Below the pieces are notes generated by a model. It worked only from the letters and a program-made list of their open reading frames with translations, had not been told where the DNA came from and made no database searches. Source: Bacillota bacterium (GTDB lineage: Bacteria; Bacillota; Clostridia; Christensenellales; Aristaeellaceae). From it: a stretch of DNA of 64,000 nucleotides. The stretch covers positions 1,814 to 65,813 of the forward strand of contig JAEYRW010000085.1 in the NCBI GenBank assembly GCA_023435435.1. The letters run 5' to 3'. Made by a program: the position numbers and the translations under genes. This document shows positions 24,307 to 58,521 of the stretch, piece by piece. Numbering within the stretch: the stretch's first letter is position 1; each line of letters begins with the position of its first letter.

Positions 24307-24320
24307 TTTGGCAAACCTAA
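24307..24320. promoter_or_regulatory. degenerate TTAG-N6-CTAA operator, copy 5
   Basis: TTTGGCAAACCTAA (one arm mismatch) at the predicted transcription start. This is the same position relative to the -10 as copy 6. Confidence 0.4.
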
Positions 24321-24337
24321 CAAAAAGGAGAATAACG

Positions 24338-39691: not shown

Positions 39692-39723
39692 GCCCTGCGG
39701 CGACTTCGCGCGCAGGGCTTTTT
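39692..39723 (+). terminator. intrinsic terminator
   Basis: GCCCTGCG-loop-CGCAGGGC followed by TTTTT. Confidence 0.75.
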
Positions 39724-39881: not shown

Positions 39882-39910
39882 TTGACCGCACCGCCGGGAT
39901 TTGATATAAT
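39882..39910 (+). promoter_or_regulatory. strong promoter of nitrogenase-like/importer locus A
   Basis: TTGACC, 17 nt spacer, TATAAT with an extended TG (TGATATAAT). Confidence 0.7.
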
Positions 39911-39920
39911 CCCATTGGAG

Positions 39921-39934
39921 TTAGTATTTCCTAA
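39921..39934. promoter_or_regulatory. TTAG-N6-CTAA operator, copy 6
   Basis: TTAGTATTTCCTAA about 10 nt downstream of the -10. Flank CCATTGGAGTTAG. Confidence 0.55.
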
Positions 39935-39995
39935 CGATTGAATTGGATGGAAAGGCTTGACCTGCACGGCTCGGCTCTTTTTTAATGCCATTGAG

Positions 39996-40009
39996 TTAGC
40001 TCTTACTAA
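39996..40009. promoter_or_regulatory. TTAG-N6-CTAA operator, copy 7
   Basis: TTAGCTCTTACTAA directly before the RBS of the NifH-like gene. Flank CCATTGAGTTAG. Preceded by a second TTGACC (39957-39962). Confidence 0.55.
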
Positions 40010-40024
40010 CATATGGAGGGAAGA

Positions 40025-40801
40025 ATGCGCAAGATTGCGATTTACGGAAAGGGTGGCATCGGGAAGTCCACCACGGCCTCGAATCTTTCCGCGGCGCTGG
40101 CCCGGCGGGGGAAGCGGGTCATGCAGGTAGGCTGTGACCCAAAGGCGGATTCTACAAAGACCCTCATGGGCGGACGCCGGATTCCCACCGTACTCGAGCA
40201 AATGCGCAAAAAGGGCGAGGCGCTCGCGCTTCCCGACATCGTGTTCGAGGGCTTCGGCGGTGTTTTGTGCGTCGAATCCGGCGGGCCGACGCCGGGGGTG
40301 GGCTGCGCGGGGCGCGGCATCATTTCGGCGTTTGAAAAGCTCGAAGAGCTGCGCGCGTTTCAGGTTCACAGGCCGGACATCGTGATCTACGATGTTCTGG
40401 GGGACGTCGTGTGCGGGGGCTTCGCGATGCCCATCCGGGAGGGATATGCCCGCGAGGTATTCATCGTGTCATCGGGTGAGATGATGTCTCTCTACGCGGC
40501 GGACAACATCGCCCAAGCGATCCGAAACTTTGGGAAGCGCGGCTACGCCCGGCTCAGCGGCCTCATTTTGAATGCCAAGAACATCGAAAACGAGACGGAG
40601 ATCGTAAAAAAGGCTGCGGAAGAGATCGGCACCGAAATCATCGCCCGCATTCCGCGCTCGGGAGACATCCAGATTGCCGAGGCTGGAGGAGGAACAGTCT
40701 TCGAGCGCGCCAAGGATTCTCCCATGTGCGCCGTCTATGACGCCCTCGCGGGCAGCGTGCTCGCGCGCACCCAGGCGGACGACACTTCATTTACCGCATA
40801 G
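40025..40801 (+). CDS. NifH/BchL-family ATPase with [4Fe-4S] ligands (nitrogenase-like reductase component), copy A
   Basis: [18 protein letters not shown]-loop, CDPKADST switch [10 protein letters not shown] and [15 protein letters not shown] with both cluster cysteines. GGAGGG RBS. Confidence 0.9.
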
Positions 40802-40855
40802 AAGTTTGGCGCGCCACAGGCCGCCAATCCACATAAATGGAAGGAGTTGACCCCC

Positions 40856-41824
40856 ATGCACCACAAATTCACGAGCCTTCTCTCGCTGCTTGCCGCCTTC
40901 TGCTTCCTGACCCTCGGACTGCCCGCCTTCGCGGAATCCGGGACGGTCACCGTCGCTTATCCCGCCAATATGCAGGAGAAGGGCTATACCGAGTCGGTGG
41001 TACTCGACAAGATGCCCGAACGCGTGGTTTCCATCGCCACGACCCCCGTCCTTGCCCTATACAGGCTCGGCGTTTCCATGGTCGGGATTCCCGCCAGCAG
41101 CGTCGTCACATGGCCAGAAGACCTGACCGCAGCGGCAGAGCAGCTCGTGGTGGGCCACGGCTCGAATTTTGACATCGAGACCGTCGTCGCCATGGAGCCG
41201 GATCTGGTGATCATGGGCTACACGAGCCAGGAGACCTACGGCGCCGTGTGCGAGGGCGCGGGCATCCCCGTCTACTACGTGGACGCGGGGCACACCGTCT
41301 CCTACGAGTCCATTAAGCAGCAGACAGAGGCGCTCATCGAAGCCTTCGGCCCGGAAAGCACGGCGGGCGCGGAGGTCATGGCATCCTTCTCCGACCTCGA
41401 AGCGCGCCTTGAGAGCGTGAAGACAGAGTTCACGGGCAAAACCGTCATGGTGCTCCAGTCCAGCCCCCCCGACCATTACATTCAGACCGCAGGCGGCACC
41501 CTCGGCTCCATGGCCGAGATGCTCGGTTTTACAAACGTCTACGAAAACGCCGAGACCTCGATGGTGCTCGTGGATTACGAGCAAGCCATCGGCTACGATC
41601 CCGATCTCGTGCTGGCCGTTGGCGCAAGCGCCACCGGCGAGGAGCATCGTACGCTTATGGAGACGGATTTCAAAAACAATCCCGACTACTGGAACAGCAT
41701 TCCCGCCATCGCGCGCGGCGACATCATTTACCTGCCCGTTTCCTATGTTGCCAGTGCGGGCATCAACGTCATCGACAACATCAACGCCCTCATCGACACG
41801 ATTGGGGCGCATTACGCCAAATAA
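40856..41824 (+). CDS. iron-chelate/B12-type ABC substrate-binding protein (Peripla_BP_2), locus A
   Basis: GGAAGGAG RBS. Signal peptide ...LLSLLAAFCFLTLGLPAFA, then PERVVSIATTPVLALYRLGV. Confidence 0.85.
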   Translation: MHHKFTSLLSLLAAFCFLTLGLPAFAESGTVTVAYPANMQEKGYTESVVLDKMPERVVSIATTPVLALYRLGVSMVGIPASSVVTWPEDLTAAAEQLVVGHGSNFDIETVVAMEPDLVIMGYTSQETYGAVCEGAGIPVYYVDAGHTVSYESIKQQTEALIEAFGPESTAGAEVMASFSDLEARLESVKTEFTGKTVMVLQSSPPDHYIQTAGGTLGSMAEMLGFTNVYENAETSMVLVDYEQAIGYDPDLVLAVGASATGEEHRTLMETDFKNNPDYWNSIPAIARGDIIYLPVSYVASAGINVIDNINALIDTIGAHYAK

Positions 41825-41825
41825 T

Positions 41826-42845
41826 ATGGCAAAGGCGCAAAAACGCGGCGGCGCCCTGCGGGTGGGCGGCGTATGGCTGATCCTGATCGCACTGCTGGCT
41901 GTCGCCGCGTGCGTCGCGCTCTCCGTGGGCAGCGCGGGGTACTCCGTTCCGGAGATCCTGCGCGCCCTGTTCGGCGGGGAAAAAAGCACGGTCCGGGTGG
42001 TCGTCCTGAATCTCCGCCTTCCTCGGCTGATCCTTTCGGTTCTCATCGGCGCGTCGCTCTCGGCGGCGGGAGCGCTTCTCCAGTCCGTCATGCGCAATCC
42101 CCTTGCCGATCCGGGGATCATCGGCGTCTCGGCGGGGGCGGGCACGGCGGCGACGACCGTGCTTCTCCTCTTTCCGGAGATGACCGGCGCGCTGCCCCTG
42201 TTCGCGTTCGGCGGCGCGGCGCTTGCGTGCGTGCTCATCTACGCCCTCGCGTGGAAGGGCGGCGTGGATCCCGTGCGGATCATACTGTCGGGCGTGGCCA
42301 TCAATTCGGTGCTCGGCGCGTATAATTCACTTTTGCAGCTTCTCAATTCCGACAGTCTCGAGGGTGTGCTGGCGTTCATGAGCGGTTCCCTTTCCGGGCG
42401 GTCCTGGCAGCAGGTGCGCGTGCTGGCGGTGTACGCGGGCATCGGCATCGCCCTGGCCTTTGTGTGTGTCAGGAGCGCGAATACCCTGCAACTGGGGGAT
42501 GAGATGGCCAAGAGCCTGGGCGTAAACGTGAATCTGAGCCGGATTCTGCTCTCCGCCGTGTCGGCGTTTCTCGCGGCGGCGACGGTCTCCGTGGCGGGCA
42601 TGATCGGCTTTGTGGGGCTGGTGGTTCCCCATATCGCGCGCATGCTCGTGGGGTCCGATTACAAGGTAATGCTTCCCACCAGCGTGCTTTTGGGCGCGCT
42701 GGTGCTCATGATCGCGGACACGGCGGGCCGCACCCTCATTCCGGGAATGGAGATCCCCGTCGGCATCGTGATGGCGGCGGCGGGCGGGCCGTTCTTCCTG
42801 TATATGCTCAGAAGGAGTGGTAAAGTCGGTGGAAATCCGGGCTGA
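41826..42845 (+). CDS. FecCD-family permease, locus A
   Basis: MAKAQKRGG... start 1 nt after the binding-protein stop. [17 protein letters not shown] motif; multi-TM. Confidence 0.9.
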   Translation: MAKAQKRGGALRVGGVWLILIALLAVAACVALSVGSAGYSVPEILRALFGGEKSTVRVVVLNLRLPRLILSVLIGASLSAAGALLQSVMRNPLADPGIIGVSAGAGTAATTVLLLFPEMTGALPLFAFGGAALACVLIYALAWKGGVDPVRIILSGVAINSVLGAYNSLLQLLNSDSLEGVLAFMSGSLSGRSWQQVRVLAVYAGIGIALAFVCVRSANTLQLGDEMAKSLGVNVNLSRILLSAVSAFLAAATVSVAGMIGFVGLVVPHIARMLVGSDYKVMLPTSVLLGALVLMIADTAGRTLIPGMEIPVGIVMAAAGGPFFLYMLRRSGKVGGNPG

Positions 42846-43611
42846 AAATCTGGAAATGGCCTACGGCGAATTTGTCGCGGTGGCGCAGATGGACATCAGG
42901 ATTCAAAAGGGGAAGATCACAACGATCATCGGACCCAACGGCTCCGGGAAATCGACGGTCCTAAAGGGCCTCTCGCGCCTTCTTTCGTATCGCGGCGGCG
43001 CGGTGTATCTGGGTGAAAAGGACATGAAGAATTTCGGCGCCAAGGAACTGGCGCGCAGGGTGGCGGTGCTTCCGCAGATTCACGCCGCGCCGCCGGATTT
43101 TCGGGTCAAGGAACTCGTGGGGTACGGGCGCATGCCGCATCAGAGGTGGTATCAGAAAAAGTGCCGCGCCGAGGACGAGGCGGTCATCGACTGGGCCATG
43201 CGCGCGACCGGCGTGTGGCCGCTTCGTGAAAAGTCCATTCGGGAATGCTCCGGCGGCGAATGTCAGCGGGTCTGGATCGCCACGGTTCTCACCCAGCAGC
43301 CGGAATTCCTGTTTCTGGACGAGCCCACGACGTATCTGGACATCGCGCACCAGATGGAGACCATGCGGCTCATCAAAAAGCTCAACCGCGAGGCGGGAAT
43401 GGGTGTGGTGATGGTGCTGCACGATTTGAGCCACGCCCTGGAAGTAAGCGACTGGATTGTGGTCATCAAGGACGGAAAAAAGGCGGGGGAGGGCGTGCCC
43501 GGGGACGTCATCACGCCGGAGATGATGCGCGCGGTCTACGACGTGGACTGCGACATCATTGCCGTGCCCGGTCGGGAAAAGCCCCTCATCGCCTACCGCG
43601 AAATATCATAA
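42829..43611 (+). CDS. FecE-type ABC ATPase, locus A
   Basis: GPNGSGKSTVLK, CSGGECQRVWIATVL, FLFLDEPTT. Start GTG 42829 is preferred (GAAGGAG 11 nt upstream); the track start at 42817 abuts the RBS. Confidence 0.85.
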   Translation: MEIRAENLEMAYGEFVAVAQMDIRIQKGKITTIIGPNGSGKSTVLKGLSRLLSYRGGAVYLGEKDMKNFGAKELARRVAVLPQIHAAPPDFRVKELVGYGRMPHQRWYQKKCRAEDEAVIDWAMRATGVWPLREKSIRECSGGECQRVWIATVLTQQPEFLFLDEPTTYLDIAHQMETMRLIKKLNREAGMGVVMVLHDLSHALEVSDWIVVIKDGKKAGEGVPGDVITPEMMRAVYDVDCDIIAVPGREKPLIAYREIS

Positions 43612-43623
43612 AAGGAGCAAGCC

Positions 43624-44922
43624 ATGGACGGAAAGACGATCGTCGCGCGCCTGAAAAAGCTGCGCGATGTGGAAACCATCCGGGAGGTCAAGACGCTCAC
43701 CGCAGCCATGTTCCCCGGCCCGCACTGTCCCCTCATGGGCGCTGCGATGGCCGTGCGCGGCATACGGGACGGTGTGATTCTGGTCCTGGGGACGGAGGAA
43801 TGTGCGTACTACACCAAGGACATGACGATCCACTCCGGCGAATTCGGCGGACTGGCCGGACGCTGCGTCTCCGTGGTGCTGGACAAAGGGGACGTCACCT
43901 TTGGCTTCCGGGAAAAAGCGGAGGCGGCATTCGGGGAGCTCATGGCCGAGTACGGCCCCAGGGCCGTGTTTCTGACCACCACATGCGTGGTGGAGATCAT
44001 CGGCGAGGACGTGGATGCCCTCGCGGCGCGCATGACCGAAAAGTGGGGGATTCCTGTCATGGCGGTGCATACCGAACACTTCAAGTGCGAAAACCACATT
44101 CCGGGTCTCGCGCGCACAATCTCCGCGTGCTTTGACATAATGGAGTCCCGTCCCCCGGACGGAAGCGTCAATGTGCTCGGGCAGCGCATGGGCGATTTTT
44201 CAAAAACGGAGCTCAGCCGGGTGCTGGGAGAGGCGGGGGCTCGGGTGGGACTGCGGCTCCCCTCCGGCTGTTCCGTGGAGGAAATCAAGGGTGCGGCGGC
44301 CGCCAAAGTCAACGTGGTCGTAAACGAGATCGCCCTGCCCCTCGCGCGGCGGATGGAAGCCGAATTCGGCATCCCGTGGGTGTTCTTCGACCGGTTTGTT
44401 TCGCCGGAGAACATCATGGCCGCATATGAAAGGCTGTTCGCCGCGCTTGCGCTTCCGCTGCCCGACCAATTGAGAGGTCTTTACGCCGCAGCCCGAAAAG
44501 CCCGGGACGGGGCCGCGCGGGCGCTTTCGGGGGTCAAATACATCTACGGCAACACGCCGCTGCGCACCTTTGAATTCAACCGGCTTCTGGTCGAGCTGGG
44601 CATGATTCCCGCGCTCATCCAGACATCCTCCCTCGAGCCGGAGGACAGGGCGGACATTGCCGCGATCCTCGAAAAGAGCGATCCCTACGTCACGAAAACC
44701 GCCAACATCGCGCCTCTCCAGTTTGTTTACGACGAGTTGCAGCCCGACGTCTATTTGGGGCACGAGTTCGCCGCGCGGCTGCGCAAGAAGGGCATCGCCA
44801 TTGCCCATACCGACCGGGCAAGCGGGATGCTTGGCTTTGAGGTTACGGGCTTTGTGCTCGGCGCTCTCGCGGCCGCCGCGCGGGAGGCAAAGGAGTACCG
44901 GAAGGAGGTTTTCGCTTCATGA
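43624..44922 (+). CDS. nitrogenase component-1-type oxidoreductase, NifD/BchN-like subunit, copy A
   Basis: 432 aa, AAGGAG RBS. Three cysteines sit in the canonical cluster-ligand contexts: GPHCPLMGA, LGTEECAYY and TTTCVVEIIGEDVD. Confidence 0.8.
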   Translation: MDGKTIVARLKKLRDVETIREVKTLTAAMFPGPHCPLMGAAMAVRGIRDGVILVLGTEECAYYTKDMTIHSGEFGGLAGRCVSVVLDKGDVTFGFREKAEAAFGELMAEYGPRAVFLTTTCVVEIIGEDVDALAARMTEKWGIPVMAVHTEHFKCENHIPGLARTISACFDIMESRPPDGSVNVLGQRMGDFSKTELSRVLGEAGARVGLRLPSGCSVEEIKGAAAAKVNVVVNEIALPLARRMEAEFGIPWVFFDRFVSPENIMAAYERLFAALALPLPDQLRGLYAAARKARDGAARALSGVKYIYGNTPLRTFEFNRLLVELGMIPALIQTSSLEPEDRADIAAILEKSDPYVTKTANIAPLQFVYDELQPDVYLGHEFAARLRKKGIAIAHTDRASGMLGFEVTGFVLGALAAAAREAKEYRKEVFAS

Positions 44923-46151
44923 GTCTCGTCCGCTATCTGCCCACCCCTTCCGACCGGATGGGTGTCATCTGGAGCCTCCTTTGCGTCGGGGGCGCGGTGG
45001 TCCTGGAATACGGGCCCGCCGGAACCACCCACTACAGCGCGGGCCTGTTCGGCGCCTTGGGCGCGGAGGTGGGCGACAGGCTGTTCACCACGCACATGAC
45101 CGAGGACGACGTTGTGATGGGCGACGTGTCAAAGCTCGAGGCCGCCCTTGTGGAAATCGACCGGGAATACGCGCCAGAGGTGATTTTCGTGGTCGCGTCC
45201 AGCATCTCGGCGGTCATCGGAACCGACCTCAGGGGCGTGTGCGCCTATATGCGGGAAAAGCTCCGCGCCCGGCTGATTCCCATGGATCAGGGCGGCTTCC
45301 GGGGCAACTTCACGCTGGGCCTGCGGGAGAGCTACCGCACGCTGGCCCGGGAACTGGCAAAGCCGGACGCGCCGAAGCTGCCGGGCAGATACAACCTCCT
45401 GGGCGCGTCGGTGGGATCGTATCGCGCGCGGTCGGATGTCTGGGAAATCGAGGATCTGATGCGCCGGGCGTTCGGCATGGAGGCCCATGCGAAACTCTGC
45501 CTGGATACAGATGTAAATGCCATTGAAACCATGGCCGGGGCCGAGGTCAATCTTGCCCTGCGCGCGGAGGCGCTTCCCTGCGCGGAGGAAATGCAAAAAA
45601 GCGGCGGGACGCCTTTCGTGACGGGCGCGCCCTACGGCTATCGCGGCACGCTCGACTGGCTGAACCGGGTTGGCGCGGCCATGGGCAGGGCGGCCGATCC
45701 AGCCCTTGTCCGGGGGATGGAAGCGCAGGCGGCCGAGGCGGCCCGGTACCGGATGTATGGCATGACGCGCCGCGCACACATGCCCGCGGCGGCGATTCTG
45801 GGCGAATACGACCTGGTGGCGGGCCTGTCCACCTTTTTGGATGAGTTGGGCCTGTCAGTGGGGCACAAGATATGTACCCATTCCCTGCGGGATTGGCCGG
45901 AGGCCGGTCCGGAGATCGTCTCCGTAACCGAGGAAAGGGACAGAATCGCCCTTCTGAAGAGGCTGCACCATTTCCTTGTGCTGGCCGACGACGTTTCCGC
46001 GCGCCTTCTTGCCCCGGACAACACATATCTTCGCGTTTCAAACCCGCTGGTGAACGGCGCGCAGATCGCGAACCATATGCCGATCATGGGCCCGCGCGGC
46101 GCGGATTTTATGTTGGAGACCATTGAGACATATTTTCAGTCGCTCTCCTGA
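44919..46151 (+). CDS. nitrogenase component-1-type oxidoreductase, NifK/BchB-like subunit, copy A
   Basis: 410 aa, ATGA overlap with the D-like gene. Alignable by eye to the D-like paralogue (…VVLEYGPAG…, …VVASSISAVIGTDL…), but the ligand cysteines are replaced. Confidence 0.75.
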   Translation: MSLVRYLPTPSDRMGVIWSLLCVGGAVVLEYGPAGTTHYSAGLFGALGAEVGDRLFTTHMTEDDVVMGDVSKLEAALVEIDREYAPEVIFVVASSISAVIGTDLRGVCAYMREKLRARLIPMDQGGFRGNFTLGLRESYRTLARELAKPDAPKLPGRYNLLGASVGSYRARSDVWEIEDLMRRAFGMEAHAKLCLDTDVNAIETMAGAEVNLALRAEALPCAEEMQKSGGTPFVTGAPYGYRGTLDWLNRVGAAMGRAADPALVRGMEAQAAEAARYRMYGMTRRAHMPAAAILGEYDLVAGLSTFLDELGLSVGHKICTHSLRDWPEAGPEIVSVTEERDRIALLKRLHHFLVLADDVSARLLAPDNTYLRVSNPLVNGAQIANHMPIMGPRGADFMLETIETYFQSLS

Positions 46152-46208: not shown

Positions 46209-46990
46209 TCAGAACTCATTCAGGCGTCCTTCCCGGGACAAAGACCACAAAATCATTCCGGCGCTGAGCAGTTGGGCGACCGCGGTGGCCGCCGCCGCGC
46301 CGGGCACGCCCCACCCGAGCGCGAGGTCGAGCGCGATGTTCGCGGCGCCGGAAATGAGGAGCACATAGAAAGCGTCTTGGTGTTTCCCGGCGCGCGCAGG
46401 ATGCCCGCCCCGATGTTGTAGGTCATTAGGGCAACACCGCCCAAATCCTACGCGGGCGGGCGGCTGCATTTCCGCCATCTCGCGCCCGCAGAATTCTTGA
46501 CGTAGCGTTGCTACGCCTTCGCCTCGGCTCCTTGCCTTGGGCGAAAATCCATCGCGGGGCTTTCTCCCGTCATTTCTGCGCCTTGCTCTGAGACCGACAG
46601 CGCGCCGAAGGTAATGCGCACGTAGGCGGGCGTCATGGGCGCGATGTCGTCCGGGACGTTCAGCATGCCTGCGAGGGCGGGCGAGAGCAAAATGCCCAGG
46701 ACGGAAAACAGGAGCCCCGCCGCGAGGGCAAACGTGATCGCCGTGTGCGCCGCCCGCGAAAGCATTTCCCGTTTCTTTGCGCCGTAATGCCGGGCAATCA
46801 AAACACCCGCACCCGCCGAAAAACCCACCCCAAAATTGACCGGCAGCTTTACCGCGACCGCGAAAAACGCATCGTCGCTCCGTCCACCGCCTCCAAGCGC
46901 GTCCGGGAATTGGAAGGGGAGGTGGGCCGGGAACTGGTGACGCGAAAGCACGCCGGTGTCGCCCTTACGCGCCGGCAGAACCATGCTGGA
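46209..46990 (-). pseudogene. decayed MATE-family efflux transporter
   Basis: MATE-like peptide pieces occur in three different minus-strand frames: GVGFSAGAGVLIARHYGAKK...PAYVRITFGAL; ALMTYNIGAGILRAPGNTKT; FYVLLISGAANIALDLALGWGVPGAAAATAVAQ. They are interrupted by unrelated sequence at about 46445-46590, and the C-terminal half is absent. Confidence 0.6.
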
Positions 46991-47320
46991 ATACGAGGAG
47001 CGCATCTCGTCAACTTTCTCTACGAGGCGACGCATGGCTGACTGTTTCCCAAAGGCCAGCAATTTCAGCTGGAATTGGACGTTGCGGCGGACGCGCTTTC
47101 CTATCGCAAAACCGGAAGGTGATACGCGCTTGTGGCTCGGGGCCTCGTCCCGGACGATTTGCAAAAGGGGCTTTTGCGGGAGGTACCAGTGTTGAAGGGG
47201 ACGATCCCACCCGTCGGGTACTTTCGATTGTATCGAAAAAATGGCGCGCGGGAAGGCGCGATACGGGAGTGGCTGTTGCCCGGGGACGAAGCGGAAGGGG
47301 CGACCCCATGAAAATTTAAA

Positions 47321-47334: not shown

Positions 47335-47418
47335 TAAGTTAACCGCCCTCGTGTATAATGGATGCGGCGCAAAACCCGGAAGGCCGTTCCAATAGACATG
47401 CACAGGAGGATCGTGTCC

Positions 47419-48261
47419 ATGATCGCAGATATTGATCGCGTCGCGGATTATTTTGCTCAAAACAATATGACCTTTCTGGATGCCCATGTCATCAGCGTCG
47501 CGCCTGGAAGCGCGCGCCGGAATACGGCGACCGCGCCGGCGGGGCAGGGAATCGTCATTCCTCTTTCCGGCAGCGCCGTATTCACCATGGACGGAACGCC
47601 CTATTTTCTGTCCCCCGGGATGGTCCTGCACGCCCGGCCCGGCGTGTGCCTGAACAAGGAGGTCGTCGGGAAAGAGGCGTGGCGCTATGCGCTGGTGCAC
47701 TATCGCGCCGCCGGTGAGGCGGATGTGCCGGACCTCGCCCATTTCGGCATGCCCGTGGAAGACTCGCCGCGCATTGCCGCGCTTTCCGGCAAACTCAGTG
47801 CGGCGGCGGACGCCGCGGACAGCATGGCGGCGCTGCGGGCAAAATCCCTTTTTCACAACCTGATTGAGGAGCTTCTCCTCTCCGCGATCAGGCGGCGGGA
47901 CGGCGGCGGCGTCATCGGCGAGGCGCTTTCCTACCTTCATGAGAATTACGCGGGTCAGTTTACCGCCGCCGAACTGGCGGCGCGGTTCGGATTGAGCGCC
48001 AAGCGCTTTGCGGCGGTCTTCCAACGGCATACGGGCATGACCCCCGCCTGCTATCTCACCGGACTGCGCATCCGGCAATCAAAGGAACTGCTCAGAACCA
48101 GCGACTGTCCCGTATCCCGCGTGGCGGAGTACGTGGGTTACCAGGATCCCTATTATTACAGCAGACTGTTCAAAAAGATAAGCGGCGTGTCTCCCACGGA
48201 ATTTCGGGCGGCGTCCGCCGAAAATGTCCGCGCAAAATCAGAAATCAACGCACGGGATTAA
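47419..48261 (+). CDS. AraC-family regulator (cupin-like N-domain plus HTH), locus B
   Basis: AGGAGG 8 nt before ATG 47419. C-terminus YLTGLRIRQSKELLRTSDCPVSRVAEYVGYQDPYYYSRLFKKISGVSPTEFR. Confidence 0.85.
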   Translation: MIADIDRVADYFAQNNMTFLDAHVISVAPGSARRNTATAPAGQGIVIPLSGSAVFTMDGTPYFLSPGMVLHARPGVCLNKEVVGKEAWRYALVHYRAAGEADVPDLAHFGMPVEDSPRIAALSGKLSAAADAADSMAALRAKSLFHNLIEELLLSAIRRRDGGGVIGEALSYLHENYAGQFTAAELAARFGLSAKRFAAVFQRHTGMTPACYLTGLRIRQSKELLRTSDCPVSRVAEYVGYQDPYYYSRLFKKISGVSPTEFRAASAENVRAKSEINARD

Positions 48262-48274
48262 AAGGGAGGAGAAA

Positions 48275-49066
48275 ATGGCCATGCACAGCATCGCCACCGC
48301 GAACCTTGCCATCGCCTACGAGGATCACCTCGTGGTAAACGGCCTCGATATGCAAATTCCGCGGGGGGAAATCACCTCGATCATCGGGCCCAACGGCTGC
48401 GGGAAATCCACGGTCCTCAAGGCGGTGGGGCGCATCCTCAAGCCCAGGGGCGGCAGCGTATCCCTCAACGGCAACGACATCCGGACGCTTTCCACCGGCG
48501 AAATCGCCCGCAAAATGGCGATTCTGCCCCAATCCCCGCTGGCGCCCGCGGGACTCACGGTGGGCGAGCTTGTGGGGTACGGCCGCTTCCCGCATCAGAA
48601 GGGGTTTGGAAAACTGAAGCCGGAGGACAGGGAAATCGTCCGCTGGGCATTGGAGGTGACGCGGCTTTCGGAACTGGAGACCTCGTTGGTGGACGCCCTC
48701 TCCGGCGGCCAGCGGCAGCGCGTGTGGATCGCCATGGCGCTGGCGCAGCAGACCGACCTGATTCTGCTGGACGAACCCACGACGTACCTCGACCTCTCTT
48801 ATCAGCTGGAGGTGCTCGAACTGCTCTACCGCCTCAACCGGGAGCAAAATTGCTCCATCGTCATGGTGCTCCACGATCTCAACCTGGCGGCGCGCTTTTC
48901 CGATTACATGATCGCCATCCGGGACGGGGAAATCGTCGGCTGCGGCGCGCCCTCCGAGATCATGACGCCCCGGGTGCTCGAAAAGGTCTTTCAAATCGAC
49001 GCGACCATCGCCACGGAGCCCCGCACGGGCCGCCCCGTCTGCCTGACCTACAACCTTCTGCGCTGA
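48275..49066 (+). CDS. FecE-type ABC ATPase, locus B
   Basis: GGGAGGAG RBS. GPNGCGKSTVLK, LSGGQRQRVWIAMALA, LILLDEPTT. Confidence 0.9.
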   Translation: MAMHSIATANLAIAYEDHLVVNGLDMQIPRGEITSIIGPNGCGKSTVLKAVGRILKPRGGSVSLNGNDIRTLSTGEIARKMAILPQSPLAPAGLTVGELVGYGRFPHQKGFGKLKPEDREIVRWALEVTRLSELETSLVDALSGGQRQRVWIAMALAQQTDLILLDEPTTYLDLSYQLEVLELLYRLNREQNCSIVMVLHDLNLAARFSDYMIAIRDGEIVGCGAPSEIMTPRVLEKVFQIDATIATEPRTGRPVCLTYNLLR

Positions 49067-49142
49067 CGGGAGGGGAAGTCCATCTCCACGCGGAAAAAAA
49101 TCCATTCCATTCCGCCGGGCGATGTGGTACCATGTCCTTGTG

Positions 49143-49156
49143 TTAGGAATGCCTAT
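49143..49156. promoter_or_regulatory. degenerate TTAG-N6-CTAA operator, copy 9
   Basis: TTAGGAATGCCTAT has the same left arm and core as copy 1, with one mismatch in the right arm. Lies just upstream of the RBS of the locus B binding protein. Confidence 0.4.
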
Positions 49157-49175
49157 CAATTTAGGAGGAAAGCAA

Positions 49176-50150
49176 ATGAAAAGAGTCCTTATTTTTGTGC
49201 TGACGCTTTTGACGGCGGCGATGGGAAGCGTCGGCTTTGCCGAGGAGACGCCCAAGACGACCGGCGACATCGACGACAAGACGGTGAGCGTCAACTACAT
49301 AAGCGAGGTGGAATACCCGTACACCTATACGGACGCGGCGGGCAGGGAAATTACCATCGAGCATCAGATCACCGCCATCGCGGTGGACTATCTCCCCCTG
49401 TGGGAGAGCATGACGCTTCTGGGCGTCAAGCCCGTGGCGGCCTCCGGAAGCGAGAACTACATCGCCACCTGGGACGCCTTTGACGGATACGACTTCAGCA
49501 CCGTAACGGACATCGGGTCGAGCGAAATCAACCTCGAGCTTCTGGCGGCGCTGGAGCCCGATCTCATTCTCGCCCAGGTGTGGGACGTAAACGACATGGA
49601 CATCGCCAATTACGAAAAGATCGCCACCGTCGCAGTCTTCAGCATGGATACCAAGATGGACTGGCGGCTGAGTCTGCGGGAGGTGGGCAAGCTCCTCGGG
49701 CTCTCCCAGCGCGCGGAGGAGGTCATCGCCCAGGTTGAGGAACGGCTCGCGGCGTCGAGGGAACTCATAAAGGAAGAATATCAGGATCAGACGGTGATGC
49801 AGATTTCCATCATGGGCGAGGACAAGTATTACTGCGCGTGGCGCGAGGATCTCTACGGCGAAACCGGCCTGGGCCTGAAAACGCCGGAGGGATACACCAC
49901 CTCCACCAACTACGAGCAGATTTCCATGGAAGCCATCGCCCAGATGAATCCGGACGTGATTTTCATCAACCTCTTCGATGGCGACGAGGCCATCTACGAG
50001 GCCATGACCGCAAACAGCGTCTGGCAGTCGCTGACCGCCGTGAAGAACGGGCGCGTGTATCTGCTGGACGGCACCGGTCACGCCAACAGCGCCCTGTCCA
50101 CGCTCCATACGGTGGACTTCATCGTCGAAAGCCTGACGCAGGCCGAGTAA
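49176..50150 (+). CDS. iron-chelate/B12-type ABC substrate-binding protein, locus B
   Basis: AGGAGG RBS. Signal peptide MKRVLIFVLTLLTAAMGSVGFA, then a Peripla_BP_2-like body (ITAIAVDYLPLWESMTLLGVKPV). Confidence 0.85.
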   Translation: MKRVLIFVLTLLTAAMGSVGFAEETPKTTGDIDDKTVSVNYISEVEYPYTYTDAAGREITIEHQITAIAVDYLPLWESMTLLGVKPVAASGSENYIATWDAFDGYDFSTVTDIGSSEINLELLAALEPDLILAQVWDVNDMDIANYEKIATVAVFSMDTKMDWRLSLREVGKLLGLSQRAEEVIAQVEERLAASRELIKEEYQDQTVMQISIMGEDKYYCAWREDLYGETGLGLKTPEGYTTSTNYEQISMEAIAQMNPDVIFINLFDGDEAIYEAMTANSVWQSLTAVKNGRVYLLDGTGHANSALSTLHTVDFIVESLTQAE

Positions 50151-50220
50151 TCAGGGATGGAAACGGGCGGTGGGCCTGCAAATAGGCCTGTCGCCCCTTT
50201 TCCTTGCCGGGGAGTTGGAA

Positions 50221-51216
50221 ATGTCAAAATCACGAAAAACGGCCGCCTTCGGATTGGCGGCGGCGGCGCTGCTCGTCATATTCCTCTTTGCGTCGATCAA
50301 TACCGGGGCCGCCCAAATCGGCCTTCGCGGGGTCTGGGACGCGCTTTTCGCCTTCGACCCCGAAAACACCATGCACCTGCTCGTGCGGGATATGCGGCTC
50401 GTCCGGGCGCTTTCGGGGGCGGCGGTGGGCGCTTCCCTGGCGGTGGCGGGCGCCATGATGCAGGGTATGACCCGCAACCCCATGGCGGATTCCGGCCTCA
50501 TGGGGCTGAGCGCGGGGGCGGGCTTCGCCATTTCCCTGTGCGTTTCGGTGCTCGGGTTCACGCGCTACAATCTGGTCCTCCTGTCCAGCTTCGCGGGCGC
50601 GCTTCTGGGCGCGGCAGGGGTTTACGCGATCAGCGCCCTCGTCCCCGGCAGCGAAACGCGCGTGAAGCTGGTGCTGTCCGGCGCCATGCTGTCCACGTTT
50701 TTGTCCGCTCTTTCCCAGGCCATCGCCATTCAAAGCGGCAAATCCCAGTCGCTGATGTTCTGGACGCTGGGGAATCTGTCCGGGATCAGCTGGGGTCAGT
50801 TTTTGGCCGCTTTGCCCTTTCTGGCGGCGGGCGTTCTCCTTTCGCTGCTTTTGTCCCCGCGGGTGACGATTCTGAGCCTGACGGACGAGGTCGCGGCCGG
50901 GCTCGGGGTGCGCGTGGGCGCGGTCAAGGCCCTGGGGACGCTGGCGGTGGTGCTCATGGCGGGCACATCGTTCGTGCTGGCGGGAAACATCACGTTCGTG
51001 GGGCTCCTGACCGCGCACTTCTGCCGCTTTCTCGCGGGCCCGGACTACCGGCGCGTGATTCCCCTGAGCGCACTGTTCGGCGGCGTACTGGTCGTTCTGG
51101 CGGATACGCTCGCCAAGGGAATCGCGCCGCCGGTGGAATACCCGGTGGGGGCGCTCATCTCGCTGATCGGCGTGCCCGTGTTCCTCTATTACGCGCGAAG
51201 GAAGGCGGGAAAATGA
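50221..51216 (+). CDS. FecCD-family permease 1, locus B
   Basis: MSKSRKTAAFG start; RNPMADSGLMGLSAGAG motif; multi-TM. Confidence 0.85.
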   Translation: MSKSRKTAAFGLAAAALLVIFLFASINTGAAQIGLRGVWDALFAFDPENTMHLLVRDMRLVRALSGAAVGASLAVAGAMMQGMTRNPMADSGLMGLSAGAGFAISLCVSVLGFTRYNLVLLSSFAGALLGAAGVYAISALVPGSETRVKLVLSGAMLSTFLSALSQAIAIQSGKSQSLMFWTLGNLSGISWGQFLAALPFLAAGVLLSLLLSPRVTILSLTDEVAAGLGVRVGAVKALGTLAVVLMAGTSFVLAGNITFVGLLTAHFCRFLAGPDYRRVIPLSALFGGVLVVLADTLAKGIAPPVEYPVGALISLIGVPVFLYYARRKAGK

Positions 51217-52217
51217 AAAAGACGCGGATTGCCCTGCCGCTGCTGCTCCTCGTTTTGCTTCTCCTGCTGATCCTTTCCGTCCGGACGGGGTATACGTCCC
51301 TTTCGTTTCGGGACATCCTGCGGATTCTCCTGGGCGGCGGGACAGACGGCGAAAATCTGGTGGTCTTTTCCTTCCGCATGCCGCGGATTTTCCTCGGAAT
51401 GCTCAGCGGCATGGGCTTCGCCCTGTCGGGCTGCGTGCTGCAGGGATTGACGCGCAACCCGCTGGCCGATCCCGGTCTTCTGGGCATCAACGCGGGGGCC
51501 GGGCTCGTGGTGGTGACGTTCCTCTCGCTGGCGGGGACGCTCTCCCTGGGGAGCGTGCTCTCCCTGCCCCTCTTCTCGCTGCTGGGCGCGGCGCTCTCCG
51601 GACTGCTGATTTACGCGCTCTCGGTTCGGAAAAATGGGGGACTTGATTCCATGAAGATGATCTTAAACGGCATCGCGATCCAGCTGGGCATGACCGCCGC
51701 CATGACGCTTCTGGCGCTGGGCCTGGATTCCGATCAGTACGAATTCGTCGCGCGGTTTCAGGCGGGGAGCTTCTGGAACGCCGACTGGCCCATGGTTCTG
51801 AGCCTTCTTCCGTGGATCGCCGCCGGATTTTTGCTGCTCATGACCAAGACGCGGGTTCTCAATCTCCTCGAAGCCGGGGACGAGATTGCGGTAGGCCTGG
51901 GCGTCCGGGTGCGCGGAGAAAAGAGGACGCTCATGATCGCGGCGCTGGCGCTGGCGGCGGCTTGCGTGTCCTCCAGCGGAAGCATGAGCTTTGTCGGGCT
52001 CGTCGCGCCCCACCTGGCGCGCAGGCTCGTCGGTTCGCGCCATCAATACCTGGTTCCGGCGAGCCTTTTGACGGGCGGGATCGTCGTGGTCGCGGCGGAC
52101 GCCGTTGCCCGCACGGTCGTCCAGCCGGAGACGCTGCCCACGGGGCTCGTCACGTCGCTCATCGGCGCGCCCTACTTTCTGACGATGCTCGTTGCCCGGC
52201 GCAAAGGCGTGCGGTGA
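51213..52217 (+). CDS. FecCD-family permease 2, locus B
   Basis: ATGA overlap with permease 1. [18 protein letters not shown] start; [17 protein letters not shown] motif. Confidence 0.85.
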
Positions 52218-52252
52218 CGCGCGCGACATCAAACACGACGGAGGGATACGCC

Positions 52253-52996
52253 ATGCAGAAAATCGCGATTTATGGGAAGGGTGGCATCGGGAAATCCACC
52301 ACCGTCTCCAATTTGTCCGTCACCTTTTCCCGCATGGGATACAGGGTCATGCAGATCGGCTGCGACCCCAAGGCGGACTCCACAAGAAACCTGACCGGCG
52401 GCACGCGGATTCAAACGGTGCTGGATGCCCTGCGCCGGGGGGACGACGTGTCCCTTGACGAAATCGTCGTCCGGGGTGACCGGGGCGTCCTGTGCGTCGA
52501 ATCCGGCGGCCCCAAGCCGGGCATCGGCTGCGCGGGGCGGGGCATCATCACGGCCTTCGAGAAGCTCGACGAGCTCGACGCCTATCGCGTCTTCCGCCCC
52601 GATATCGTGCTGGGCGACGTGGTGTGCGGCGGTTTTTCCATGCCCATCCGAAACGGATACGCGGACAAGGTCTTCATCGTAACCTCGGGGGAAATGATGT
52701 CTCTGTACGCCGCGACCAACATCGCCCACGCGGTGGGAAACCTGAGCGGAAGCCGTGCGGCCGCGCTGGGCGGACTGATCTTCAACGCGAAAAACATCGA
52801 GGACGAGGACCGATTGGTGGAAACGGCCGCCGGGGAGATGGGAACGGCCGTGATCCACAAAATCCCCCGGGACGGCGCGACCCAGCGCGCGGAAGCGCAT
52901 GGGAAGACCGTCGCCGAGGCTTTTCCCGAAAGCGCCATGGCGGGGGAATACCGGGTGCTGGCGGAGAAACTGACGGAGGGCTGGGATGGGATATAA
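52253..52996 (+). CDS. NifH/BchL-family ATPase, copy B (in-frame 4-codon deletion in the Walker B/switch II region)
   Basis: [34 protein letters not shown] and VVCGGFSMP are all present. However, [10 protein letters not shown] lacks the IYDV residues of copy A ([14 protein letters not shown]). Confidence 0.8.
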
Positions 52997-54142
52997 GAGG
53001 CTGTCCGATATCGCGGGAAACGCGGGCGTGCGGTTATCGGAAACGCCCGTCGCATGCGGCGTACATTGCCCGATGCACACGCTATTGTCGGTGGTCCGGC
53101 GACTGAAGGGCGTCTCGACCTTGGTCGTCGGCATGCCCGAGTGCTGCCGGTACAGCCGCTTCGTCATCGACAATCTGCATTTTCCGGATCTTCATTACGT
53201 CTATATGCTGGACGGAAACGAAGTCGTGTTGGCTGCGGGGACGGGGTTGCGCGTGCGCTTTCGGAAATGGCCGGGGCGGGGGCCGCGCACATCCTGGTGG
53301 TCAAGACCTGCGTTCCCGCGCTCATTGGCGAGGAACTCGAGGGCGGCTCGGACGCGGTGGGCCGGGAAACGGGCGCCGCGATCCGCGTCATCGACGCGGC
53401 GCACTTCAAGCGCAACGGGTATCTTTCCGGGTACGCGCTGGCCTACGAGGCGCTGGCCTTTTTCCTGCCCAAGTTGGCGGCGGAAAATCAGGTCAATCTG
53501 CTGGGCGGCGCGGACGGCGCGGAATTTGCACGACTGAAGGATTTGATCGGCGCGCGCTTCCGGCGCGCGGCCTTTCCCGCGCAGGAGCCGGACGATTGGC
53601 CCGCGCTGGCGCGGGGGCGGTTGAATCTTGTGTTTTCCGCGCTGTTTTTGAAGATGGCGCGGGCGATGGAGGAACGGCTGGGAATCGCCTACATCGATCT
53701 TACCCGGGGAACGACGCCCGCCCGGGTCGCGGCGCTTTACCGCGCGATTTCCGGGGCGCTGGAGATGCCCGTCGAGCTCGATCCGGGAGCCGCTCCCGCG
53801 CGGTGTGCACGGGAGCCTTTGCGGTACACAAGTAGCATCTCCCATCCGGATATTTTGACGATGGTCGCCATCCTCGACGCGTGCGGCGCGGCGGCGGACG
53901 CGATTCATCTGGAGGAAGCGGACGACGTTTCCGGGCGCGAAGGACTGTCGTGCGATCCGCAGGTTTTCTATGAGGCGAAATCGGCGAACCGCGGCGCGAC
54001 GTCGCTCATCTTTGAAAACGGGGCCAGTATCCCCGGCGGGGCAATCGAGGCGGCGATGAAAAAAATCGGCTATGAGCGGATTGAGGCGCTTTGCGCGCTC
54101 GTCCGTTCAGCGACGGAAGGAGGCGCGGCATGCCGCTTATAA
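52986..54142 (+). pseudogene. NifD/BchN-like subunit, copy B, disrupted by a 1-nt frameshift near 53229-53230
   Basis: Frame 1 gives ...VHCPMHTLL...GMPECCRYS...YMLDGNEVV. The homologous continuation (GCGDGVARALSEMAGAGAAHILVVKTCVPALIGEELEG...) is in the -1 frame and runs to 54142. Confidence 0.7.
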
Positions 54143-55314
54143 AAAATGTTCCGGAGATGTCCGGCAGGATGGGCAGACTCATGGCCCTCGCGACCGTCGA
54201 AGGCGCGGTGCTGCTGGAATACGGCTCCATGGGCCACATGGTTTACGCGGAAAAATGGAAGGGGCAGCTGGGCGCCGCGCCCACGGCGGAGCTGTATACC
54301 ACCCACATCGGGGAAAAGGAGATCGTGCTGGGGCTGACGGATCGGCTGGAAGAGGCCGTCGGGAATCTGATCCGCACGAAAAAGCCTCCCGCCATATTCG
54401 TCATCCCCTCCTCGATTCTTGAGATGATCGGCACGGATCTTGGCCCGGTCTGCGACGAGCTCTCCGAAAAGTCTGCGACGAAAGTCCTTTTCAGCCGAAA
54501 GGGCGGATTCCGGGCGCGCGGGGGCGACGGGATCGAGGAGGCGCTTTTCCAACTTGCCCGGGAAATCGCCGATGCGCCGGACGGAACGGAGGAATCGTTC
54601 AATCTTCTGGGCTGCTGTGCGGATCACACGGGCTTCCGAAACGACGCGCGGGAGATCGCCCGCATCATGAAGGGCGCGTTTTCCCTGGACATGCACTGCG
54701 CCCTCACGGGCATTTCCTCCATGGAACGCATCCGGACGATGAACCGCGCCCGGCTGAACGTCGTTCATCGGTGGGAGGCGCTGAAGGCGGCCCAATATCT
54801 CGAGGGGGAATACGGGATTCCCTATGTATACGTGCCGGCCTACGGCCTTGCGGGCACGCTCGCGTTCTTAGAGGAGGCGGGGCGCGCGCTGGGCAGGGAG
54901 GCAAAGTCCGATTTTGTGGAAACCGAAAAGGCCGAGGTTCTGCGCCAGATTGAGCTGTGCAGGGCGCGCTTTTCGCACGATGAAAACAAACCCACCGTTA
55001 ACATCGGCGGCCCGAGCGACCGCGTGCGCGGCATCGCGTCCTTTTTGGTTGAGGAGCTCGGCTTTGCGCGCGGCCTTGTCTGGGCCAGCGACCGAAGGGA
55101 GGCAGGGCTTGCGTGGATGACCGACGACGAGGCCTTCGATCTGATTCGGCCGGGATTCACCCTCGCCGCGCCGGAAATCACCGAACGGGCGGGAATGGGC
55201 CGAATGCATGCATTGACCTGGAGCGCCGCGACGCAGGATATTGATCCGGATGTCCCGACGTTTGCTGGATTTGGGGGAACGGTTGGGCTGTGTTTTCTTG
55301 TCTCCGGGCAATAG
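54130..55314 (+). CDS. NifK/BchB-like subunit, copy B
   Basis: GGAAGGAGG RBS. MPLIKNVPEMSGRMGRLMALATVEGAVLLEYGSMG... aligns with copy A (MGVIWSLLCVGGAVVLEYGPAG...). IPSSILEMIGTDL matches VASSISAVIGTDL. Confidence 0.75.
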   Translation: MPLIKNVPEMSGRMGRLMALATVEGAVLLEYGSMGHMVYAEKWKGQLGAAPTAELYTTHIGEKEIVLGLTDRLEEAVGNLIRTKKPPAIFVIPSSILEMIGTDLGPVCDELSEKSATKVLFSRKGGFRARGGDGIEEALFQLAREIADAPDGTEESFNLLGCCADHTGFRNDAREIARIMKGAFSLDMHCALTGISSMERIRTMNRARLNVVHRWEALKAAQYLEGEYGIPYVYVPAYGLAGTLAFLEEAGRALGREAKSDFVETEKAEVLRQIELCRARFSHDENKPTVNIGGPSDRVRGIASFLVEELGFARGLVWASDRREAGLAWMTDDEAFDLIRPGFTLAAPEITERAGMGRMHALTWSAATQDIDPDVPTFAGFGGTVGLCFLVSGQ

Positions 55315-58408: not shown

Positions 58409-58521
58409 ACGGCATTGTCCGGATTATTCACCGGAGGTAAAGTTGTTTTCCTCCGGTGAATAGACTTTGTATGAAATCCACATATAATAGCATTATTCGA
58501 CCTTGTTCGGGGGGATTTGTG

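Follow-up and report, generated by a model that had tools for sequence, protein, structure and literature searches.

Structure of locus A

The window analysed here is a 64,000-nt stretch of DNA from a member of the Bacillota (Christensenellales; Aristaeellaceae), corresponding to positions 1,814–65,813 of contig JAEYRW010000085.1 in assembly GCA_023435435.1. Positions 39882–46151 of its + strand form locus A, in which a promoter and two palindromes are followed by six tightly packed genes on the same strand that encode, in order, a NifH-like [4Fe-4S] ATPase (H), a secreted binding protein (BP), a FecCD permease (P), an ATP-binding cassette (ABC) ATPase (A) and two nitrogenase component-1-like proteins (D and K). 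The protein families had been assigned in a first-pass annotation made from the sequence, and Pfam and NCBIfam profile matches bear out all six. We describe locus A as a member of an uncharacterised nitrogenase-like clade with a specific predicted role in the anaerobic acquisition of iron or haem.

The 5′ boundary of the locus is a terminator-like hairpin (Table 1), which closes an upstream operon of Opp/Nik-type ABC transporter and Metallophos genes. The promoter P1, described earlier as strong, scores 11 of 12 and is the top promoter-like site within 39600–46600 in a promoter scan, and the two operator copies described with it (O1 and O2) are both present in the form GTTAG-N6-CTAAC. O1 starts 9 nt past the −10 box and is, hence, placed at the predicted transcription start, and its spacing from the −10 box matches that in related loci. 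As O2 is preceded by a degenerate copy of the promoter, the leader can be read as a tandem promoter-operator duplication; this second promoter copy was not reported by the promoter scan because of the T at position 2 of its −10 hexamer. No RNA element was found in Rfam for 39900–40025 at the gathering threshold.

Two gene starts were revised. H is NifH-like as described, but ATG 40025, which lies five bases past the ribosome-binding site, is the most likely start and gives 258 aa rather than 262, and the permease start at the overlapping TTG 41619 has been replaced by 41826 or 41862. The ATGA overlap that joins D and K is at 44919–44922, as annotated. From H to K, the successive junctions are +54, +1 (or +37), −17, +12 and −4 nt, and the locus has no more terminator-like sites than shuffled sequence does. 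The junctions fit a single predicted operon running from H to K.

The H, D and K proteins

H includes the P-loop, switch I and switch II, and the DVVCGGF motif, i.e. all of the hallmarks of an Fe protein, and is a member of PF00142. Its Cys37, Cys82, Cys94 and Cys130 are invariant across 66 orthologues, and Cys94 and Cys130 correspond to Cys97 and Cys132 of the Azotobacter vinelandii NifH. D and K have the component-1 fold, with PF00148 scores of 203.9 and 217.1 bits, respectively, against a gathering cutoff of 28.6, and the profile check that had been suggested for the three proteins (PF00142 and PF00148) was, thus, positive for each of them. The D/K family is broad, with 107 representative clusters at E ≤1e-30 and 411 down to approximately 95 bits recovered in a full-library search, the proteins being approximately 420–440 aa long.

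Cys35, Cys60 and Cys121 of D align with Cys62, Cys88 and Cys154 of NifD, which are [4Fe-4S]/P-cluster cysteines, and all three are invariant, with Cys81 found in 79 of the 80 orthologues. In a profile-profile alignment of D and K, the residues of K that lie opposite these three cysteines are Ser11, Thr36 and Ser95. Cys108 of K is invariant in 75 sequences, and K Cys22, considered as a cluster ligand, was ruled out as it is not conserved. When D was aligned to the Clostridium pasteurianum NifD and, separately, to NifE, an Asn was found at the position of NifD Cys275 and NifE Cys250. D also includes a motif conserved in the family, V148-HTEHFK-(C)-E-N-H158 (VHTEHFK-x3-H), that falls where NifD has Gln191 and His195 beside the cofactor. 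On this ligand pattern, the D/K pair is predicted to have a simple [4Fe-4S]-type electron-transfer site, with neither a P-cluster nor an M- or L-cluster site.

An AlphaFold2 model of D (predicted local distance difference test score, pLDDT, 87.5) has a generic component-1 fold, and a fold search returned NifK, NifN, NifE, VnfK and MarD with template modelling (TM) scores of 0.65–0.76. Because all of the nitrogenase-family chains match the model about equally, a fold search cannot tell the subfamilies apart.

Relationship to characterised nitrogenase-like families

None of H, D and K reaches the curated cutoff of any nitrogenase-like family among the NCBIfam equivalogs. H scores 348 bits with the CfbC model (NF033200; cutoff 402) and 334 bits, also below the cutoff, with that for NifH. 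D and K lie nearest to NifE, at 77–111 bits overall (TIGR01283: D 90.8, K 110.7; cutoff 505), and match the NifE PDB entries 9i0g and 3pdi at 58–97 bits. Scores with the remaining models are 24–25 bits for nifN (TIGR01285; cutoff 327), 36–63 bits for NifD and NifK (cutoffs 427–654), 19–72 bits for BchN, BchB, BchY and BchZ (cutoffs 420–529) and, for CfbD (TIGR03282; cutoff 268), 21.7 bits with D and 37.3 bits with K, while PDB matches to methylthio-alkane reductase (MAR), NifDK and DPOR are at 24–63 bits (MarD, 9fmg_A, 55 bits). The placement of D and K is based on these hidden Markov model and PDB scores together with the ligand patterns. Judged in this way, the pair is not nested in a characterised clade and is placed outside every characterised nitrogenase-like family. 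Nesting of this kind had been named as counting against the first-pass interpretation, which is strengthened on this point as well as by the conserved transporter linkage and by junctions that fit co-transcription.

Nitrogenase proper has three P-cluster cysteines in each subunit, whereas D has three and K none, and the ligand of the iron-molybdenum cofactor (FeMo-co) at the Cys275 position is replaced by Asn in D. The genes nifB, nifE and nifN, already noted as missing from the window, were not among the window ORFs (open reading frames) scanned, a scan that covered the small ORFs only in part and the window rather than the whole genome. The D/K reductase is, on these features, predicted to be unable to fix nitrogen. 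NifEN, which with NifH is the FeMo-co maturase, has subunits of similar size and a single bridging [4Fe-4S] site instead of a P-cluster, but D and K differ from it in their scores, well below the cutoffs, in the Asn at the NifE Cys250 equivalent and in having no nifB, nifDK or nifX neighbours at locus A. We also take NifN to have a cluster Cys at the position of K Thr36.

Locus A can also be compared with the enzymes that act on tetrapyrroles. DPOR (BchLNB/ChlLNB) and COR (BchXYZ) likewise combine an H protein with two different component-1 subunits, for their inter-subunit [4Fe-4S] cluster the N/D-like subunit supplies three Cys and the partner a non-Cys ligand, and their substrate is a tetrapyrrole ring. 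Asp36 of BchB is presumably the residue to be expected where K has Thr36, which is aligned with the second cluster Cys of D. In contrast to DPOR and COR, locus A lacks a photosynthesis context and is found in gut fermenters. CfbCD (the Ni-sirohydrochlorin a,c-diamide reductive cyclase of coenzyme F430 synthesis, NFL group IV-B) resembles it in pairing an ATP-dependent NifH-like reductase with a component-1 protein and, as is predicted for locus A, in using [4Fe-4S] clusters only, with no need for NifB, and in acting on a metallated tetrapyrrole, and it is the CfbC model on which H scores highest. However, CfbD is a single homomeric subunit and locus A encodes two distinct component-1 subunits, and CfbCD is biosynthetic where locus A is an importer operon under an uptake-type operator. 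Neither DPOR/COR nor CfbCD models reach their cutoffs with D and K. According to a 2026 Chemical Reviews survey, CfbCD is apparently constitutive.

MarBHDK and IsrBHDK (methylthio-alkane and isethionate reductases, NFL groups IV-C and IV-F) provide a parallel of another kind, as they are nitrogenase-like systems for nutrient scavenging that share their regulation with ABC importers and are switched on when the element that they liberate runs short, sulfur in their case and apparently iron at locus A. Unlike locus A, they have complex P-like and L-like clusters and require a NifB homologue (MarB/IsrB); ligands for such clusters are not present in D and K, and a NifB-like neighbour was not found. 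Their sulfonate and methionine transporters are encoded elsewhere in the regulon, whereas the FecCD-type genes of locus A sit between H and D. Finally, the group VI Nfl systems (Elusimicrobia type), which were compared on neighbourhood only, differ in being surrounded by radical S-adenosylmethionine (SAM) genes, the neighbours that mark this group (Meheust et al. 2020); no radical-SAM family was in the top-25 lists of our neighbour surveys (299 flanking ORFs, 80 related loci).

Linkage between nitrogenase-like and transporter genes has been recorded before. Dos Santos et al. (2012, PMC3464626) noted NifH, ABC ATPase and NifEN-like genes together in Clostridium botulinum (CLM_0808/0809) and Alkaliphilus oremlandii (Clos_0313/0314), the E-like protein having three conserved P-cluster Cys and the N-like protein no conserved Cys, and also noted nitrogenase-like genes co-located with ABC transporters in other genomes. 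This description, which is the basis of our comparison, matches locus A, and these genes very probably belong to the same clade. No function, regulon, flavodoxin link or BP analysis is given in that article. The first-pass annotation knew of no member of the superfamily in a chelate-uptake operon, which was too strong given the linkage already described in PMC3464626; what stands is that none has been functionally characterised in the literature searched. That literature yielded no functional study of a nitrogenase-like enzyme in haem or iron uptake and no report of a GTTAG-N6-CTAAC operator. The systems covered in the 2026 Chemical Reviews survey are Nfa, CfbCD, MAR, ISR, DPOR/COR and an uncharacterised group VI. 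The survey names no transporter-embedded, iron-linked nitrogenase-like system, and regards the assignment of functions to uncharacterised clades as a main open problem, one in which gene context has so far been of little help.

Conservation of the linkage and a candidate electron donor

In order to place locus A among its relatives, one genome per species was scanned; 171 relatives were found and the best 80 loci were analysed, with synteny counted on the 66 loci that have enough upstream sequence and operators and flavodoxins counted on 68. Importer genes are embedded with H, D and K in 53 of the 66, so the linkage seen in the window is conserved. The order is H-BP-P-A-D-K in 30 loci and H-BP-BP-P-A-D-K in 17, and transporter genes are adjacent in other orders in 6 more. 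Grouped by the pattern H-BP(-BP)-P-A-D-K, 48 loci are counted, and five others have P and A side by side. When identities to the window proteins are compared with that of D, the correlations are r=0.78 for P, r=0.81 for A and r=0.82 for K and, hence, the genes appear to evolve as one module. That the arrangement at locus A is far beyond chance is confirmed. The hosts, Clostridia and Negativicutes among them, include Oscillospiraceae, Lachnospiraceae, Christensenellales, Phascolarctobacterium faecium DSM 14760, Catenibacillus scindens, Neobittarella massiliensis, Epulopiscium, Spirochaetes and one Fusobacterium metagenome-assembled genome. One locus (L061) includes a second BP-D-K set, with a D that is 41 % identical, a distant paralogue that, like locus B (described below), keeps the transporter link.

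In 37 of the 68 loci, K is followed on its own strand, at a distance of <700 nt, by the start of a flavodoxin gene, and in 44 a flavodoxin gene lies within 2.5 kb; a flavodoxin gene at the end of the operon fits a low-potential reduction. In the window, the corresponding gene is unlinked, in a short operator-bearing operon that consists of a DUF3793 gene and a gene for a short-chain flavodoxin (Table 1), the latter being a candidate electron donor for H. The same DUF3793-flavodoxin pair is found 3′ of K in Phascolarctobacterium-type loci. The DUF3793 protein includes an invariant FPHEIG…C136…C141-W-K…C161 motif; it had no sequence match in the PDB, and its AlphaFold2 model (pLDDT 89) had no structural match (best Foldseek E value 0.13).

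Divergent AraC regulator genes make up 29 of the 150 upstream ORFs surveyed and, in diderm hosts, genes for ExbB-ExbD-TonB, TonB-dependent receptors and ChaN-like PF04187 proteins adjoin the operon.

The operator and its regulon

With one mismatch allowed, GTTAG-N6-CTAAC is found seven times in the window against an expectation of 0.34, and none of 100 shuffled sequences reached seven. At the same stringency, 45 of the 68 loci have it in the 300 nt upstream of H, where it typically sits 8–12 nt past a TATAAT or TATACT box, i.e. at the transcription start. There are 78 exact copies in the 1.24 Mb of loci, for which the estimated chance expectation is approximately 1–3. The 36 copies that lie away from H precede genes for ExbB-ExbD-TonB, TonB-dependent receptors, ChaN-like PF04187 proteins, flavodoxins, DUF3793 proteins and AraC regulators, and the predicted content of the regulon is of the iron or haem acquisition type. 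This conserved operator fits the metal-responsive control that had been proposed for locus A.

Apart from O1 and O2, the window sites precede an ABC exporter-type pair (site 16755), a 109-aa winged helix-turn-helix (wHTH) gene (20793), the DUF3793-flavodoxin operon (20970), a third FecCD importer with a FepB-like BP (24306) and the BP gene of locus B, a second nitrogenase-like system described below (49142).

Two readings of the palindrome were compared. Across the 78 sites, the spacer is unconserved and the flanks are non-complementary past one base, and one-mismatch variants mostly break the pairing rather than forming G-U wobbles. These properties are those of a DNA operator for a dimeric protein. 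An RNA hairpin was rejected on the pairing-breaking variants, the non-complementary flanks and the null result with Rfam. In four Phascolarctobacterium loci (L020, L035, L039 and L042) the operator lies inside perfect palindromes of approximately 26–34 bp, approximately 112–116 nt upstream of the NifH-like gene, and the flanks there vary by paired changes (aataga/tctatt versus aatgga/tccatt), a local covariation for which the DNA reading does not account.

Control by Fur was rejected, as there is no Fur-box enrichment upstream of H (six weak hits in the 68 loci). The half-site resembles what we take to be the inner half-site of DtxR/IdeR boxes, with different spacing, and this is a lead only. 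The 109-aa wHTH protein has a weakly DtxR/MntR-like helix-turn-helix and is encoded between two operator sites. With only two relatives found among 5.8 billion proteins, and the 80 loci containing none, it cannot be the general regulator; it was rejected for this rarity and may be a lineage-specific member of the regulon. The exporter-type pair is an ABC exporter-fold heterodimer (MsbA/CydDC-like) beside an AraC regulator gene. A few related loci (e.g. L010) have similar pairs beside the operon, and the window pair could be an exporter-fold chelate importer, or else a siderophore or haem exporter.

The importer and its cargo

Together, BP, P and A make up an importer of type II (BtuCD/HmuUV/FecBCDE-type), and the presence of one FecCD permease gene implies that it is homodimeric. 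Importers of haem and of B12 typically have one permease gene. The BtuC and FhuB models score P equally (both approximately 251 bits), and attempts to type the ligand from the receptors, the permease and the ATPase failed, each being ambiguous among B12, haem and siderophores.

Both classes of BP in the family score best with the IsdE model, at 81–95 bits (81 for the window BP), which is short of the cutoff of 299 (TIGR03659, 298.65), and the position of IsdE His229 is not conserved, so that BP is not an IsdE by these measures. Met or His is found at the position of the IsdE Met78 loop in 66 of 76 family members (His101 in the window BP), in a loop alignment that drifts by 1–2 residues. The best PDB match of BP is Lmo2184, which we take to be part of an Isd-like locus of Listeria. 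BtuF scores are 28–33 bits, well under those for IsdE, and neither the window nor any of the seven related loci tested has a cobalamin riboswitch ahead of H. The resemblance of BP to IsdE is a lead that falls short of family membership, and haem is the leading candidate for the cargo.

In P. faecium DSM 14760 (L035, 1924–6228), a cobalamin riboswitch is followed by genes for a TonB-dependent receptor, a 320-aa protein of no family and a Peripla_BP_2 protein. This unit is without a permease or ATPase of its own and adjoins the NifH-like operon and, hence, may share the permease and ATPase of that operon.

Proposed function and alternatives

We propose that locus A couples a type II chelate importer to a nitrogenase-like reductase that would reduce a haem-like chelate and so free its iron without O2, a reading to which we give about an even chance. 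When iron is scarce, a dimeric regulator bound at GTTAG-N6-CTAAC would leave the promoter, and BP, the permease dimer and the ATPase would import the chelate, most likely haem or a close iron tetrapyrrole. A flavodoxin under the same operator would reduce the [4Fe-4S] cluster of the H dimer which, on ATP hydrolysis, would pass electrons of low potential to a [4Fe-4S]-type cluster for which the three Cys of D would be the main ligands. D and K would then reduce the bound macrocycle or its ferric centre, a step like those of the tetrapyrrole reductases DPOR, COR and CfbCD, and the iron would be freed without O2. It is from the anatomy and context of the locus that we infer the metal response, the role of flavodoxin as electron donor, the nature of the cargo and the reaction.

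DPOR, COR and CfbCD are the characterised members of the superfamily that reduce with simple [4Fe-4S] clusters. To our knowledge, all characterised members of this type reduce tetrapyrrole rings and none performs a simple one-electron reduction of a metal, and the most specific proposal is, therefore, a reductive destabilisation of the haem macrocycle. By analogy with the six-electron step of CfbCD, multi-electron reduction of the ring by D/K would lead to the loss of Fe(II) and leave a porphyrinogen-like product, a step that we put forward tentatively.

Several observations weigh against the proposal. H, D and K are found without an embedded transporter in 12 of the 66 loci, several of which have a FecCD/ATPase pair approximately 6 kb upstream. 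The IsdE scores of BP are far under the cutoff, the His229 position is unconserved, and the Met/His column shares the drift of its loop alignment. P and A are equally near to B12, hydroxamate, citrate and haem systems, TonB-dependent receptors are ambiguous among B12, haemin and siderophore types, and in P. faecium the cobalamin-riboswitch operon lies directly upstream of the H operon. The iron response is read from the content of the regulon alone. Finally, locus B is siderophore-like, with an FhuD/FecB-like BP and two permeases, which suggests that the enzyme class may not be specific to haem.

One alternative is that the reductase acts on ferric siderophores, its ATP-coupled low-potential electrons reducing Fe(III) in chelates, such as tris-catecholates, that are beyond the reach of ordinary flavin reductases because of their low potentials, and leaving the ligand intact as Fe(II) is freed. 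An operon of this type, an AraC regulator and a TonB/receptor context are no less typical of siderophore systems, locus B combines its FhuD/FecB/FepB-like BP with a two-gene permease, a FepB-like BP belongs to the third importer, which is under the same operator, and the PDB neighbours of the locus A BP include binders of catecholate and other siderophores. We nonetheless consider it unlikely, since IsdE is consistently the best model for the BPs of the main clade, which have Met or His at the haem-ligand loop, a ChaN-like haem-binding family is co-regulated with the operon, and the superfamily is, as far as we know, without a one-electron metal reducer, its simple-cluster members reducing tetrapyrroles. 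It is still less probable that D and K are a NifEN-like scaffold on which an iron-sulfur or other metal cofactor is assembled from, or stored with, imported iron, with the NifH-like protein as maturase. Dos Santos et al. (2012, PMC3464626) suggested a coupling of metal transport to cofactor assembly, D and K both have NifE as their best sequence match, and the conserved His/Cys-rich VHTEHFK(C)ENH motif lies in the cofactor-pocket region. However, the NifE scores are far under the 505-bit cutoff, the Cys250-equivalent ligand is Asn, neither the scanned ORFs of the window nor the top-25 neighbour lists include a NifB or radical-SAM partner, no recipient enzyme is encoded nearby, and a dedicated flavodoxin together with a chelate-specific BP better fits catalysis on the cargo.

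Salvage or remodelling of a corrinoid, or of another non-haem tetrapyrrole, for cofactor rather than iron supply would account for the BtuF, BtuC and corrinoid-ATPase models among the matches, for the receptor and BP under a cobalamin riboswitch directly upstream in P. faecium, and for the cbi pathway and cobalamin riboswitch that lie approximately 25 kb away in the window. We rate this as improbable, marginally more so than the scaffold, because the window and the seven loci tested have no such riboswitch ahead of H, the BtuF scores are well below those of IsdE, and the operator ties the operon to TonB/ExbBD, ChaN-like proteins and flavodoxins, which indicate iron or haem and not B12. A cryptic or alternative nitrogenase, which has membership of PF00142 and PF00148 in its favour and nothing further, can be set aside almost completely, as K is without all three of the P-cluster Cys, D has Asn at the FeMo-co Cys position, the NifD and NifK scores are 36–63 bits against 427–654, and nifB, nifE and nifN were not among the ORFs scanned in the window.

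The proposed release of iron from haem can be set beside that by the radical-SAM proteins ChuW/HutW/HmuW and the HmuS dechelatase of the Bacteroidota, which share the role predicted for locus A, the use of haem iron independently of O2, but which belong to protein families, and use chemistry, unrelated to those of D/K. ChuW/HutW/HmuW and HmuS are encoded beside haem import genes. Their genes were not in the top-25 lists of the neighbour surveys.

Locus B and other features of the window

Locus B is a paralogous nitrogenase-like and FecCD system (Table 1). Its K is approximately 37 % and its D approximately 24 % identical to the locus A family, and the His-rich motif of the locus A D is not conserved in its D. 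A 1-nt frameshift at a G run near 53247 divides its D-like gene, leaving the N-terminal part, which includes the CxxHC and ECC motifs, in one frame and the remainder in another; GG in place of the required GGG is consistent with a 1-nt deletion. The frameshift reflects either a real pseudogene or an error in the metagenome assembly.

The cobalamin riboswitch of the window leads a cbi cluster that includes genes for a CbiK-like chelatase with an N-terminal extension of approximately 110 aa, an 886-aa protein ending in a Peripla_BP_2 domain, an ABC ATPase, CbiJ, CbiC, CobA, CbiD, CbiG and methylases. The third FecCD importer is flanked on one side by the gene for a 798-aa protein of the hydantoinase/oxoprolinase family and on the other by that for a URO-D-like protein. 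A truncated MatE fragment just past locus A and, towards the right end of the window, a large serine recombinase gene could point to rearrangement or a mobile element.

Table 1. Positions of the features of locus A and of other features in the 64,000-nt window
Feature	Position	Strand	Details
Terminator-like hairpin	39692..39723	+	GCCCTGCG...CGCAGGGC then TTTTT; read by eye
Promoter P1	39882..39910	+	TTGACC-N17-TATAAT with extended −10 TG
Operator O1	39920..39935	+	GTTAGTATTTCCTAAC (GTTAG-N6-CTAAC)
Second promoter copy, degenerate	39957..39986	+	TTGACC-N18-TTTAAT; read by eye
Operator O2	39995..40010	+	GTTAGCTCTTACTAAC; directly 5′ of ribosome-binding site GGAGG (40015–40019)
H, NifH-like [4Fe-4S] ATPase	40025..40801	+	258 aa; PF00142, E 8e-100
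BP, secreted Peripla_BP_2 binding protein	40856..41824	+	PF01497, Pfam E 5e-20
P, FecCD permease	41826..42845 (alternative start 41862)	+	PF01032, E 1e-95
A, ABC ATPase, FecE/haem-importer type	42829..43611	+	PF00005; FecE 257 bits, haem ABC ATPase 225 bits
D, nitrogenase component-1-like	43624..44922	+	432 aa; PF00148, E 5e-60
K, nitrogenase component-1-like	44919..46151	+	410 aa; PF00148, E 5e-64
Unlinked operator-bearing operon	20970..22035	+	GTTAGGGTGTACTAAT (20970–20985), DUF3793 (21066–21614), short-chain flavodoxin (21628–22035)
Operator-like sites	16755, 20793, 20970, 24306, 49142		Directly 5′ of start codons or just past −10 boxes
Locus B, paralogous nitrogenase-like and FecCD system	47362..55314	+	AraC, ABC ATPase, FhuD/FecB-like BP, two FecCD permeases, H-like, D-like, K-like
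Locus B NifH-like	52253..52996	+	
Locus B D-like (frameshifted)	52986..54142	+	PF00148
Locus B K-like	54130..55314	+	PF00148
cbi cluster	62..15179	−	
Cobalamin riboswitch	15202..15401	−	Leads cbi cluster; approximately 25 kb from locus A
AraC regulator	15687..16694		
ABC exporter-fold pair	16788..20334	+	MsbA/CydDC-like; under operator
wHTH protein	20421..20750	−	109 aa
Hydantoinase/oxoprolinase-family protein	22126..24522	−	798 aa
Third FecCD importer	24338 to approximately 28186		
URO-D-like protein	28383..29399	−	
MatE fragment, truncated	46511..47164	−	217 aa
Large serine recombinase	58456..60399	+	

Implications

Mise et al. (2021, PMC8597730) show that gut metagenomes are rich in ‘pseudo-nifH’ genes of Clostridia and Negativicutes, for which no role is known. 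With the importer genes placed between those for the reductase, a terminal flavodoxin gene and a conserved operator, the context of locus A is unusually informative for a clade of this kind and makes the hypothesis testable in cultured gut species. The operator is a second and independent lead, as GTTAG-N6-CTAAC appears to mark an iron-type regulon in Firmicutes that is not based on Fur boxes.

If the proposed reduction of the haem ring is correct, it would represent a third, hitherto unknown, O2-independent route from haem to iron, beside radical-SAM ring opening and the dechelatases, and one that is widespread in gut Clostridia and Negativicutes. It would account for a part of the ‘pseudo-nifH’ signal in gut metagenomes, and so provide the first function for many of the genes that inflate counts of gut diazotrophs. 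Iron would then join sulfur, nitrogen and carbon as elements served by nitrogenase-like scavengers, and there would be an explanation for how strictly anaerobic Firmicutes of the gut draw iron from haem or from other tight chelates.

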